This document shows, piece by piece, positions 3,579 through 24,534 of a stretch of 64,000 bases of DNA. Within the stretch, counting starts at the first letter, position 1, and each line of letters begins with the position of its first letter. The translations under genes and the position numbers were made by a program. Below the pieces are notes generated by a model. That model was not told the origin of the DNA and did not search any database. It saw nothing but the letters and a program-made list of their open reading frames with translations. Origin of the DNA: Kofleriaceae bacterium (lineage in GTDB: Bacteria; Myxococcota_A; Polyangia; Haliangiales; Haliangiaceae); NCBI GenBank assembly GCA_046597055.1, contig JBKJLC010000084.1, forward strand, positions 1-64,000, given 5' to 3'.

Positions 3579-4795
3579 TGCCGGCGATGGCGCTCGAGCT
3601 CCGAACGATCACCGATGACGAGGTCCCCGGCTTTCGCGAGGCCCTGATGACGGTCTTCGGCGGCGACGCCGAAGACGACGAGGGTGGGGCCGACCGTTTC
3701 CGCGCGCTGGTCGACCCATCGCAAGCGTGGGCCGCGGTCGATGGCGGCCACATCGTCGCCACCGCGGCGACGTTCAACCTGGCGATCGGGATTCCTGGCG
3801 GGACGCTGCCGATCGCCGGGCTGACCATGGTGACGGTGCGGCCGACCCACCGTCGGCGCGGCCTCCTGCGCGAGCTGATCCGCGTTCATCTCGACGACGC
3901 CCGCGGGCGGGGCCTGGCGGTCAGCGGGCTGTGGGCCTCGGAGGCCTCGATCTACGGCCGGTTCGGCTACGGGGTCGCGGCCCACCACGACGAGCTGGCG
4001 GTCGACGCCGCCCAGACGATGACGGTCGCCGGCAACCGCGAGCTCGACCGCATCGAGTGGATCGATGAGGCCGGCGCGCGCGCCGAGCTGCCGGCGATCT
4101 ACGCCGCGGCCACCTCCGACCGGCCGGGGGCCCTGCGCCGCACCGAGCCGTGGTGGCGCGAGCGCCGGTTCCTCGAGGCACCGTTCATGCGCCATGGCGC
4201 CAGCCGGCGCCGTCACGTGATCGCGCGCCGCGGCGCCGAGGCAGTCGGCTATCTCGGGTACCGCCAGCGCGGCGAGTTCGAGCAGGGGCTGCCCACCGGC
4301 AAGACCGAGATCAACGAGCTGATCGCGCTCGACCCGCGGGCCGAGGCCACGCTGTGGCGGTTCGCGCTCGGCATGGACCTGTTCCCGAGCGTGTCGTGGT
4401 GGTGCGCACCGACCGACTCGACGCTGCCGTGGATCGTCGACAATCCGCGCCGGGTCCGCCGCAGCCGCGTCGACAACCTGTGGCTGCGGATCGACGACGT
4501 CGGCGCGGCGCTCGCCGCCCGCCGCTACGCCGGCGACGGCACCGTGCGGTTCGCGCTCGACGACACCACCTCCTGGGAGCTGGTGGTCGAGGCCGGGGTC
4601 GGCCGCTGTGCGCCGACCGCGCGCGCGCCCGAGCTCCAGCTGGCGCGCACCACCCTGGGCGCCCTGTACCTCGGCAGCACCGCGGCCACCGAGCTCGCGC
4701 GCGCCGACCTGGTCCACGGCGATGCCGCCGCGATCGCCACCGCTGATCGCCTTTTCGGCTGGCCGGTCGCGGCGTGGTGTCCGGAGATCTTCTGA
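3575..4795 (+). CDS. Eis-like GNAT N-acetyltransferase with SCP2-like C-terminus
   Basis: VTVRPTHRRRGLL, LWASEASIYGRFGYG, DNLWLRIDDV and terminal CPEIF, typical of the Eis family. Confidence 0.9.
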   Translation: MMPAMALELRTITDDEVPGFREALMTVFGGDAEDDEGGADRFRALVDPSQAWAAVDGGHIVATAATFNLAIGIPGGTLPIAGLTMVTVRPTHRRRGLLRELIRVHLDDARGRGLAVSGLWASEASIYGRFGYGVAAHHDELAVDAAQTMTVAGNRELDRIEWIDEAGARAELPAIYAAATSDRPGALRRTEPWWRERRFLEAPFMRHGASRRRHVIARRGAEAVGYLGYRQRGEFEQGLPTGKTEINELIALDPRAEATLWRFALGMDLFPSVSWWCAPTDSTLPWIVDNPRRVRRSRVDNLWLRIDDVGAALAARRYAGDGTVRFALDDTTSWELVVEAGVGRCAPTARAPELQLARTTLGALYLGSTAATELARADLVHGDAAAIATADRLFGWPVAAWCPEIF

Positions 4796-21807: not shown

Positions 21808-21865
21808 CCGAGTCGGTCGTACTGCTGGCGATCCGGGGTCGCGGGCCTGGTGCGGGGACGGGGTC

Positions 21866-22078
21866 GGGGTCGTCGCGGCAGGGCCTGTGGACGCTGGCGC
21901 CGCCGTGGCCAGCCGCGCCTTCGAGGCGAGGACGTTGCCGCGGAAGGGTGCGGGGCGCGCCTGCCCACCGCGGCTTGGATTGCTGCGCCTTCGAGTCGCG
22001 GGGGGCGGCCAGCGGCGAAGGTGGGCGCACCAATCCACAGCGCCCACAGTCCGGTGACTGCCCCTGATCTGTAAAAAC
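21866..22078 (-). repeat. left copy of a ~213-bp structured inverted repeat flanking the HNH gene
   Basis: Reverse complement aligns to 23644-23856 at roughly 85% by manual alignment. Confidence 0.92.
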
Positions 22079-22184
22079 AACAGAGCGCAGAGCTGTCACA
22101 GCGCACGACGGCGCCGACACGGCGAACGTGTTGATCTGCACTCCCGTGCAGGGGATCGTGAGTGTCAGACTGCCATGCTAGTCA

Positions 22185-23462
22185 ATGGTGATGCTCGCCG
22201 AGATGATGGTGTTGGGGGATCGGATTGCGGAGCAGGCGGCGCACCTGGACGCGGCCCTGTTTCGATTGCTGACCGATCTGCGGCAGTTCGATGCGGCCGG
22301 CGGCTGGTACCAGGCGGGCGCGCGCTCGTGCGCACACTGGCTGTCGTGGCGGGTCGGCTGGGATCTCGGGACGGCGCGGGAGCACGTGCGGGTGGCGCGG
22401 CGGCTGGGCGAGTTGCCCAACGTCGGGGCGGAGCTGGAGAAGGGCGCGCTGTCGTACTCGAAGGTCCGTGCGATCACGCGGGTGGCCACGCCGGCCACCG
22501 AAGACTGCCTGGTGCTCTTCGCGCGCAAGACGACCGCGGCACAGCTGGAGAAGATCTGCCGCCAGTACGGGACGGTGCGGCGGCTCGCCGAGAAGGGCGC
22601 GGAGGGCGATCGAGCCCGGCGTCACGTCGGCCGCCGCGATCTGTCGGACGGCATGGTCCGCATCGAAGCGGTCCTGCATCCCGACGAGGCCGCCGTGCTG
22701 TGGGCGGCGATCGAGCGCAGCGCCCGGGACGCTTCCGCGGAAACGTCGGGTACGACCGCCCGGTTCGATCGCGCGGATGGCCTGGTGGCGATGGGGCAAG
22801 CCGTCGTGCGGGGGGAGCGCCCCGAGCGGTCGCCGGTGGAGGTCATCATGACCGTGCCGCGGGAAGCGCTCGCGCTCGACGCGGCCCCGAGCGAGAACCC
22901 GGCCGACCAGCTCGGCTGTCTGACCGACGGTGGACACGTCTCGCCGGAAGGGGCGCGCCGGCTGTGCTGTGACGCCGGCGTGGTCGAGGTCGTCACCGAC
23001 GAGGCGGGGCAGCCCCTGTCGGTCGGTCGCAAGACCCGCACGATCCCGGCGCCGATCAAGCGCGCGCTCCTCCTCCGCGATCAGGGCTGCCGGTTCCCGG
23101 GCTGCACCGATCGCCGGTTCCTCGACGGCCACCACATCCAGCACTGGGCCGACGGGGGCGAGACCTCGCTCGATAACCTCGTGACCGCGTGCAGCCGTCA
23201 TCATCGGTTCGTTCACGAGCACGGCTACCGCGTCGAGCTGCGTGATGGCTTGCCGGTCTTCTTCAATCCGCATGGCGTCGAGGTCCACGCCACCCCGCCG
23301 CGTCCGTCCCTCGGACTGCTGTCCTGGGACTACCTCCGCGAGCTCAATCGCGACCAGGACATCACGGCGCAGACGGGCCAGTGCGAGTGGGACGGGCTCC
23401 CGGTCAACTATGGCTACGTCCTGCAAGACCTGCACTACTACGCCACGCACGACACGCCGTGA
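22185..23462 (+). CDS. DUF222 (13E12-repeat family) HNH endonuclease
   Basis: GARSCAHWLSWR, AREHVRVAR, LSYSKVRAITR, ARRLCCDA, RDQGCRFPGC, HHIQHWADGGETSLDNLVTACSRHHRFVH. Confidence 0.92.
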   Translation: MVMLAEMMVLGDRIAEQAAHLDAALFRLLTDLRQFDAAGGWYQAGARSCAHWLSWRVGWDLGTAREHVRVARRLGELPNVGAELEKGALSYSKVRAITRVATPATEDCLVLFARKTTAAQLEKICRQYGTVRRLAEKGAEGDRARRHVGRRDLSDGMVRIEAVLHPDEAAVLWAAIERSARDASAETSGTTARFDRADGLVAMGQAVVRGERPERSPVEVIMTVPREALALDAAPSENPADQLGCLTDGGHVSPEGARRLCCDAGVVEVVTDEAGQPLSVGRKTRTIPAPIKRALLLRDQGCRFPGCTDRRFLDGHHIQHWADGGETSLDNLVTACSRHHRFVHEHGYRVELRDGLPVFFNPHGVEVHATPPRPSLGLLSWDYLRELNRDQDITAQTGQCEWDGLPVNYGYVLQDLHYYATHDTP

Positions 23463-23480
23463 TCGTCGGCCGTCGGTCCG

Positions 23481-23524
23481 TCGGTCGGTCGGTCGGTCGG
23501 TCGGTCGGTCGGTCGGTCGGTCGG
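23481..23524 (+). repeat. (TCGG)11 microsatellite
   Basis: Eleven perfect TCGG units with degenerate units on both sides, starting 18 nt after the HNH stop. Confidence 0.95.
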
Positions 23525-23643
23525 TCGTGGTCGTCGGACGTCGGTCGCAGCTCCCGGTCGCCGGCGTGGCGGGCCGCGCAAGAGCGCGCTGGTGGTTGGC
23601 CGCTCTGGTTCGATCCAGCACGGCTCTGGTGCTGGTTCGGAAA

Positions 23644-23856
23644 GTTTTTGAAGATCAGGGGTAGTCGCGGCCTGTGGGCTCTGTGGATTGGCGCGCCCAT
23701 CACGCTGCTGCCCACCGCCGGCGCCCCGAAGGCGCGGCAATCCAAGCCGCGGTGGGCAGGCGCGCCCCATCACGCTTCCGCGGAAACCTCCCTCGCCTCG
23801 AAGGCGCGGCTGTCCACGGCGGCGTCAGAGTCCACAGGCCCTGCCGCGACGAGCCC
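23644..23856 (+). repeat. right copy of the ~213-bp structured inverted repeat (candidate ncRNA or ssDNA structure)
   Basis: Stems GGCCTGTGGGCTCTG/CAGAGTCCACAGGCC, GGATTGGCGCGCC/GGCGCGGCAATCC and AGCCGCG/CGCGGCT; compensatory changes relative to the left copy. Confidence 0.92.
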
Positions 23857-23932
23857 TTCGACGTTCACCGCCCGCCTCACACGGGCTGTGAGGGCCAGGC
23901 CGCGTCACGCGGGCCGCGCGGCGCACGCCGCG

Positions 23933-23948
23933 TGGCACAGGCTGTGCT
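23933..23948 (+). promoter_or_regulatory. putative sigma54 -24/-12 promoter
   Basis: TGGCAC-AGGCT-GTGCT, 13 nt before ATG 23961. Confidence 0.5.
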
Positions 23949-23960
23949 TCGACTGGCATC

Positions 23961-24512
23961 ATGCCGCCCATGCACCGCCCGTCGCCCTCGCTGTTGCCGC
24001 TTCTGCTGGTGCTCCTGCCGCTCCTTGCCTGTGACCCCGAGCTTCACCGCATGGCCGTCGCCGCCGAGCGGGTCCCGTGCACCGGCGTGGGCAACCAGAT
24101 GTGTCTACTCGTCACCGATCTCGACCAGGCCGCCGCCACGCCGACGCTCTTCTACGACGGCATCGCGGGCTACCAGCATCAGTGGGGCCGCGCGGTCGAG
24201 ATCGACTATACGCTCGAGTCGATCGACGACCCGCCGGCGGATGGCTCGAGCCAGCGCCGGACGGCCGAGCGCGTCGAGGTGGTCAGCACCGCGGCCGCGG
24301 GTGCCACGTTCACCACGCGCTTTCCGGTCTCGTCCCAGCCCTGGTTCGAGCTCGGCGCGACGGGCGTGGTGCTGATCGATGGCACGCCGGTGGTCAGTCC
24401 CGACGAGCTGCGCGCGCGGGTAGTCGGCCCGCTCGAGCAGGCGCTCGAGGTCGTGATGGCGTACGACGGCGCCGGTGGCCTGGCGCTCCGGTCCGCCACG
24501 AGCGTGCCCTGA
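23961..24512 (+). CDS. DUF4377-like lipoprotein
   Basis: Lipobox LLAC; VPCTGVGNQMCLLV, FYDGIAGY, PPADGSS. Confidence 0.78.
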   Translation: MPPMHRPSPSLLPLLLVLLPLLACDPELHRMAVAAERVPCTGVGNQMCLLVTDLDQAAATPTLFYDGIAGYQHQWGRAVEIDYTLESIDDPPADGSSQRRTAERVEVVSTAAAGATFTTRFPVSSQPWFELGATGVVLIDGTPVVSPDELRARVVGPLEQALEVVMAYDGAGGLALRSATSVP

Positions 24513-24534
24513 CCGAGCACCGTCGCGCGGGCGG

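Follow-up and report, generated by a model that had tools for sequence, protein, structure and literature searches.

Genes of the 13E12 type, in which a DUF222 region is joined to an HNH nuclease domain, are abundant and induced by DNA damage, and the literature searched gave neither a substrate for their products nor a mechanism for their mobility. The window analysed here, a stretch of 64,000 nucleotides from a Kofleriaceae bacterium (contig C208 of the 8.4-Mb genome that was searched, in 303 contigs), holds one such gene enclosed by two long inverted repeats, and the question that it raises is what these repeats are and what moves the DNA that they bracket. The original prediction had taken them for the cis-acting ends, or the non-coding RNA partners, of an element driven by the HNH protein. 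The repeats are instead copies of an uncatalogued DNA element, folding as a Y and here called the Y-element, which accompanies mobile genes of several unrelated kinds. The features of the locus are the following:

21808..24534, no strand: whole insertion, between convergent isomerase (PF01261) and phosphodiesterase (PF01663) genes
21866..22078, minus strand: left Y-element, 5' AT-rich end toward the HNH gene (alignment, fold, covariation)
22163..22184, plus strand: candidate DNA-damage promoter TGTCAG-N10-TA, directly 5' of the HNH start codon
22185..23462, plus strand: DUF222-HNH (13E12-type) gene, 425 aa (PF02720 and PF01844)
23480..23527, plus strand: (GTCG)n microsatellite, between the arms and 5' of the right Y-element
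23644..23856, plus strand: right Y-element (alignment, fold, covariation)
23961..24512, plus strand: DUF4377 gene, outside the repeats and within the DNA missing from relatives here

The reverse complement of 21866-22078 aligns with 23644-23856 at 86.5% identity over 215 columns (E about 1e-64), in agreement with the roughly 85% noted at first, and the two halves of this pair are the first two of the 2838 inverted pairs listed for the window. The arms enclose a single gene, the DUF222-HNH gene, plus the microsatellite. Their extent of ~213 bp, as first noted, is that of the alignment, but the right copy reaches further inward, with a 5' leader of about 40 nt beyond 23644, from about 23605, that is common to other copies. 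As had been noted, no target-site duplication is present, the longest word common to the outer flanks being 5 nt, and no transposase lies between the arms or adjoins them at this locus; in trans, however, a Y1 transposase is linked to the same repeat family. A DDE insertion sequence or MITE was considered and rejected, the arms being 213 nt long and internally folded, with no target-site duplication.

Among the five relatives having the isomerase gene, the 3' ends of the isomerase and phosphodiesterase genes abut in three, with nothing between them, and in the other two the isomerase gene has unrelated neighbours; none of the five has the HNH gene or the repeat. The adjacency in three relatives indicates that 21808-24534, including the DUF4377 gene, is a 2.7-kb insertion. 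Among the joints listed for four sequencing runs, none is an empty-site or inversion joint of the window locus.

Each arm folds into three helices that meet at a three-way junction with 0, 1 and 2 unpaired nucleotides:

22038-22051 with 21882-21896, minus strand: P1 of the left element
22024-22037 with 21976-21989, minus strand: P2 of the left element
21954-21974 with 21899-21919, minus strand: P3 of the left element
23669-23683 with 23826-23840, plus strand: P1 of the right element
23684-23697 with 23731-23744, plus strand: P2 of the right element
23746-23766 with 23803-23823, plus strand: P3 of the right element

That the repeats are structured is borne out by strong, non-random covariation: in an alignment of 28 copies 89.6% of the cells pair, and 109 cells have changed on both sides compared with 38 in shuffles, while controls in which the pairing is slid pair at 34-45%, figures that overstate the contrast because the structure was derived from the same 28 sequences, many of which are kin. 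The same junction was later found in copies outside this alignment. Its bases are invariant, and loops, arm length and arm number vary; variants with extra arms and the same junction were observed beside IS21-type ends (L295:3018-3227 and L310:1495-1650). One strand is favoured in folding, with z of -5.49 on the minus strand and -1.03 on the other for the left arm folded as DNA, and of -5.24 and -3.94 on the other strand for the right arm folded as RNA. Searches in Rfam gave no relevant match for the window, the long copies or the compact copies. Among the 23 hairpin loops of compact copies, seven have the C(GNA)G triloop and none is of the UUCG or GNRA kind; GNA triloops are specific to DNA. 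No conserved GTAG foot stands at the base of the stem in the 28-row alignment and truncated copies end at differing places, so that no cleavage site is legible. A cluster of DnaA boxes was rejected as the main feature, since the window copies differ from the box consensus at 2 positions and many copies have no box within 2 mismatches.

A profile search of the source genome found 16 Y-element copies, 14 of which adjoin a nuclease gene, solo copies being rare. For seven of them (type A) the distance to a DUF222-HNH gene, or to half of one, is 104-178 bp. The other nine (type B) comprise seven that directly precede a Y1 HUH gene, themselves mostly preceded by a microsatellite other than (GTCG)n, one that a contig end interrupts and one truncated solo copy. 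The multicopy Y1 protein matches PF01797 above cut-off, has intact HUH and tyrosine motifs and the motif YxxNNW, and scores too low for the NCBIfam models of REP transposases and of IS200 (NF047646, 35.8 bits against a cut-off of 80); all seven Y1 genes with assembled upstream DNA carry a co-directional Y-element upstream.

The DUF222-HNH gene is multicopy, as expected, with seven tblastn matches in the genome (two whole genes and five halves at contig ends), and the expected tie between repeats and HNH genes holds locally: six of the seven genes or gene halves have a Y-element, the exception being an 86%-identical gene on C262. Compared within their end class, the five halves at contig ends show 98-99% identity, and read depth over the HNH gene and right arm is about 3-5 times that of the flanks (two runs, one study), which indicates that a young HNH subfamily has spread together with its repeats. 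The right ends of three young HNH copies have as much as several hundred bases in common past the repeat, and this shared DNA stops at different points; thus, the repeat does not mark a sharp boundary of the moving unit. Two other studies yielded contigs that match the left arm and portions of the HNH gene at about 95% identity, suggesting that the window's own HNH copy is stable.

Some further observations concern the same genome. Three of the young HNH copies (C86:561-904 and the ends of C236 and C146) carry pieces of a gene that is intact at C224:14588-14900 and that we take to be universal-stress-protein-like, each fragment ending differently. At C4:395-620 an element stops at a microhomology of 7 nt, where it joins the beginning of a multicopy gene, presumably encoding a four-helix-bundle-like protein (compared: C112 and C185). 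An unrelated, abundant REP-like repeat family is spread over many contigs (C193, C26 and C245; upstream on C205), its top 18-mers having at most 88 copies.

The distribution of the Y-element elsewhere comes from BLAST, patterns and scans of selected loci and is a lower bound. In relatives the element is found at 15 of 68 Y1 loci (six genomes) and at only 5 of 128 HNH loci, that is, 3 of the 48 from related genomes, all in genome G037, and 2 of the 80 metagenomic ones, which are near-identical to each other; the search profile included some of these copies, and model R1 found those of G006, G008 and G016 independently. Back-to-back doublets with spacers of ~100-130 nt and the window's polarity occur beside Y1 genes or between ordinary genes with no nuclease gene, the gene-less kind being represented by L033 and by doublets in G005, G006 and G016. 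In G009, where Y1 paralogues share 89-93% identity, the element may precede the gene, follow it or do both, in most cases co-directionally. In G037 it mostly adjoins HNH-type genes and a partial copy stands at one of three Y1 loci; the G037 ORF beside L284 and L300 was not confirmed as DUF222-like, and related copies bear the label HNH2 from tblastn matches to the HNH domain. In a tree built from 49 copies, three changes are needed for the HNH label, two of them forced by starred branches, and four for the Y1 label. The two window arms are sisters on this tree (99/79, not starred), a placement that suggests local homogenisation of the arms. A Y1 gene with the element at L070, whose 2.6-kb contig bears the title Vicinamibacterales, falls among the G009 copies and is either a recent transfer or a case of mis-binning.

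In the phylum of a Vicinamibacterales genome the junction pattern was found in 8 of 121 genomes, the reversed control giving 5 singletons; two of those pattern matches are due to chance, and seven of the remaining loci score 21-63 bits with model R1. One setting of the compact copies is the interior of an IS21 element with istA, istB and matching ends; others follow a further istB or are close to transposases of the rve type and of ISL3. Those in IS21 are 100-200 bp inside the ends and point inward. A close homologue of the source-genome Y1 protein was found in none of the five genomes with DDE-linked compact copies, and PF01797 has no match in one single-contig genome carrying compact copies. 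The window's own phylum gave one non-self pattern match in 300 genomes and, with a stricter compact pattern, none in 401; the viral contigs scanned gave no Y-element match and the plasmid searches no meaningful one. As a separate observation, G702 (L335-L345), a genome of 3.5 Mb, holds at least 40 near-identical copies of a 108-bp repeat unrelated to the Y-element. Ends specific to HNH genes, as originally proposed, do not agree with a repeat that is also found beside Y1 genes, inside DDE elements and as gene-less doublets. Two observations had been named in advance as telling against that proposal, repeats occurring apart from HNH genes and HNH loci lacking such flanks, and both are largely what we found.

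The protein between the arms is an ordinary member of the 13E12 family as judged from its domains, matching PF02720 (DUF222, 75.6 bits) and then PF01844 (HNH, 32.2 bits), both above cut-off, with HNH and zinc-ligand residues invariant in 83 homologues. For its predicted structure (pLDDT 89.5), Foldseek gave no match at E<=0.001, and neither it nor a wide fold search gave a RuvC-like match. The wide search aligned residues of about 265-369 with HNH domains of the McrA, TagI and IscB types (Z 6.5-6.7), and residues 20-169 with the ParB DNA-binding domain (Z 5.8, rmsd 6.8) and with Spo0J (Z 4.9, rmsd 2.7). The ParB, Spo0J and KorB matches of the N-terminal part, at Z 4.2-5.8, are below the tool's reliable range; the modelled DUF222 region weakly resembles the ParB DNA-binding domain; no ParB CTPase domain was detected in the protein.

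The motif TGTCAG-N10-TA precedes all four assembled HNH starts in the genome, and many homologues, and occurs 19 times genome-wide compared with 5 for the reversed control. It resembles the PafBC/RecA-NDp consensus, and from this promoter-like motif the HNH gene is probably damage-inducible through its own promoter. A PafBC promoter motif is named in the available part of PMC8223512, and induction of 13E12 genes by DNA damage is reported in that of PMC13157036. The homologues fall into groups with different upstream motifs:

L134, L136, L138, L144, L158: example loci of the first promoter-motif group, with SOS boxes
L011, L014, L109, L110: example loci of the second group, with TGTCAG-N10-TA

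The SOS boxes follow the LexA-type consensus, and the two groups suggest, at the level of motifs, that the 13E12-type family may be under damage control by different regulators. No single repeat word stands out as enriched around HNH genes. Long flanking inverted repeats were found at only one of 64 other HNH loci, L137, where a DUF222-HNH gene is bracketed by an inverted repeat of ~160 bp, 78% identical (1968-2126 and 3840-3995) and unrelated in sequence to that of the window; one copy of this L137-type repeat stands upstream of two related genes (L121 and L124). Downstream of a close HNH homologue (75%) at L002/L099 come small ORFs of low GC content and a 136-bp duplicate of the HNH gene's own middle part, palindrome included.

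This palindrome links the HNH gene and the repeats of the window, a match that emerged while the loops were being screened for guide-like targets:

22729..22744, no strand: palindrome within the open reading frame of the HNH gene, TTCCGCGGAA being its core; candidate site for binding by the DUF222 region
23772..23787, plus strand: matches the palindrome stretch of the gene at 16/16 positions; loop of P3, right element
21931..21946, minus strand: matches the same stretch at 15/16 positions; loop of P3, left element

The core occurs in 34 of 107 distinct HNH genes, compared with 0-1 for ten control words, and gives 67 matches in 39 of 108 HNH loci, often several per locus, and none in the 68 Y1 loci (the HNH loci scanned include L002-L030, L097-L176 and L247-L266). 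Its outer pairs co-vary, with 54, 61 and 52 of 67 staying paired, and its position varies within HNH genes, 15 occurrences being upstream. In the source genome it occurs six times, four of them in HNH loci and one in the right arm; intact or near-intact copies are limited, among the repeats, to the two window arms, those of the three youngest right ends being decayed and C205 having none. The 14-bp palindrome matches 10 of 14 positions both of parS and of the NBS consensus as given in the accessible part of PMC7383237.

Which agent moves the unit can be weighed from these data, bearing in mind that the readings considered are not fully exclusive. The one that we prefer, tentatively and at somewhat less than even confidence, is a REPIN-like module of single-stranded DNA that the Y1 HUH enzyme would move in trans and in which the HNH gene would be cargo. 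Each repeat would act as a folded single-stranded three-way junction, which the Y1 enzyme, encoded elsewhere, would recognise on one strand; by cutting and rejoining DNA near the junction it would cause the element and adjoining DNA to be copied or repositioned. Such recognition and cleavage are modelled on the behaviour of TnpA-REP as described in the portions of PMC6006769 and PMC8266576 at hand. Two elements back to back would form a REPIN-like doublet and, in the window, the DUF222-HNH gene with its own promoter would ride in the spacer of the doublet; the HNH-linked copies may have become a subfamily of their own, taking up the palindrome of the HNH family in a tolerant loop, and the HNH protein may also bind these copies because of the palindrome in their loop. 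The position of the element upstream of every Y1 gene whose 5' flank is assembled here and at part of the Y1 loci in relatives argues for the Y1 enzyme, as do the gene-less and Y1-side doublets of the window's polarity, the invariant junction bases with variable arms, the DNA-type triloops of compact copies, and the ragged outer ends with no target-site duplication; furthermore, strand-specific cutting and rejoining would be expected to give the varied, mostly co-directional placement seen around the G009 paralogues. Against it stand 53 of 68 Y1 loci without the element, the scarcity of solo copies, unlike classical REPs, the lack of a GTAG foot, the preference of G037 copies for HNH-type genes and the absence of an empty-site or inversion joint among those listed. 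Moreover, the DDE-linked copies in genomes with no close Y1 homologue or PF01797 match indicate that the Y1 enzyme is not the only keeper of the Y-element. These copies are better explained if a host factor uses the element as a general accessory signal (for example in priming, replication restart or protection of single-stranded intermediates), the element being kept as a helper near the ends of unrelated mobile elements with no single mover and the HNH unit carrying two; the contact of nearly all source-genome copies with a nuclease gene agrees with this. We nevertheless consider a host signal unlikely, since the element is dispensable, being missing from most Y1 and HNH loci, its DnaA-box likeness is not kept across copies, and gene-less doublets together with shifts around close Y1 paralogues suggest a mobility of its own.

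The palindrome is the basis for a further explanation, that the DUF222-HNH protein itself drives the unit: its ParB-like helical domain would bind both the palindrome of the HNH gene itself and those in the loops of the repeats, after DNA damage the HNH domain would nick nearby, and repair would copy the gene between or beside Y-elements. The enrichment of the core in HNH genes, its absence from Y1 loci, its co-varying outer pairs, the weak ParB alignment and the independent HNH-Y associations in G037 and L111 are in favour; we hold this explanation to be distinctly doubtful, as the right ends that spread most recently hold decayed palindromes, C205 has none, 123 of 128 HNH loci and the C262 paralogue are without the repeat, the ParB fold match is not in the reliable range, and DNA shared past the repeats misfits homing with the repeats as homology arms. 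If the repeats were instead structured RNAs, serving the nuclease as guide, scaffold or regulator, the covariation and the G-U-compatible pairs would suit them equally, and the closest folds of the HNH domain include those of McrA and IscB. This is the least supported explanation and a very improbable one: orientation to the partner gene varies, the left arm is upstream of the HNH gene and antisense to it, DNA-type triloops prevail in compact copies, the predicted model has no RuvC-like match, and guide-like targets are unconvincing, 4 of 12 loops beating their 10 shuffles by 2-6 bits, with three modest excess matches. The predicted RNA partner thus gained no positive evidence.

A bolder combination, which we regard as a rather remote conjecture, is that the Y-junction is a portable single-stranded DNA signal used by many mobile elements and that DUF222-HNH proteins are ParB-derived, site-specific nucleases recognising the parS-like palindrome of their own genes and of the junction loops, the two together making a self-mobilising, damage-triggered element; if true, this would be mobility that depends on no classical transposase and no guide RNA, and would account for the spread of the widespread 13E12 genes. 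Two leads are testable, the parS-like palindrome as a likely binding site of DUF222 and the Y1 HUH enzyme as a likely mover. In the literature searched, which includes few subscription journals, no description of the Y-junction element or of the DUF222 palindrome was found. A set of 224 motifs that may bear on the novelty of the Y-element is reportedly contained for the most part in Rfam. These motifs are described in PMC5737381, which, in the part available, presents single-stranded DNA motifs more complex than a hairpin as rare; a branched element of three-way-junction form, found across two phyla and common to HUH, HNH and DDE elements, would be among these rare cases.

Several known systems resemble parts of the unit. 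Mycobacterium tuberculosis REP13E12 (PMC13157036, in part) shares the DUF222 and HNH domains, the multicopy state and the reported induction by DNA damage, which the damage-type motifs of the homologues here parallel; flanking Y-elements and an internal parS-like palindrome were not found in the available description, and the window copy is in a Kofleriaceae-like myxobacterium. In the Ssn GIY-YIG nucleases, organised as NTS-ssnA-NTS (PMC11893778, accessible portion), a nuclease gene is likewise bracketed by structured repeats that are found elsewhere too, but the present enzyme is HNH rather than GIY-YIG and the repeat is far longer, branched, low in copy number and shared with other enzymes. 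ParB-parS and Noc-NBS, so far as PMC7383237 was available, are similar in the geometry of the 14-bp palindrome, in the matched consensus positions and, weakly, in fold, although the HNH-gene palindrome has a different central four bases and is a candidate site only. OMEGA/IscB was rejected, NF040563 giving 23.2 bits over the HNH part only against a cut-off of 175, and the IscB fold matching only residues 289-358. Like IS200/IS605 elements carrying TnpB or IscB (PMC6006769, in part), the unit has a passenger nuclease, possibly moved in trans by a Y1 enzyme, and no target duplication; unlike them, its ends are long inverted homologues rather than distinct left and right hairpins, and it has no RuvC domain or evidence of a guide RNA.

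REP/REPIN-RAYT systems, as described in the parts of PMC6006769 and PMC8266576 consulted, are alike in having structured repeats, variable in number and orientation, around a Y1 HUH gene, with inverted doublets, strand asymmetry and conserved stem mismatches. They differ in that their repeat is a hairpin of 20-40 nt, compared with a three-way junction of about 180-200 nt with no GT[AG]G foot, and in the class 2 motif YxxxNP, whereas the Y1 protein here is multicopy with its own motif. The 16 copies of the source genome are few and nearly all beside mobile genes, not dispersed among ordinary genes, and the Y-element is also shared with HNH and DDE elements. The repeat therefore departs from classical REPs in two defining respects and, in part, works like one.
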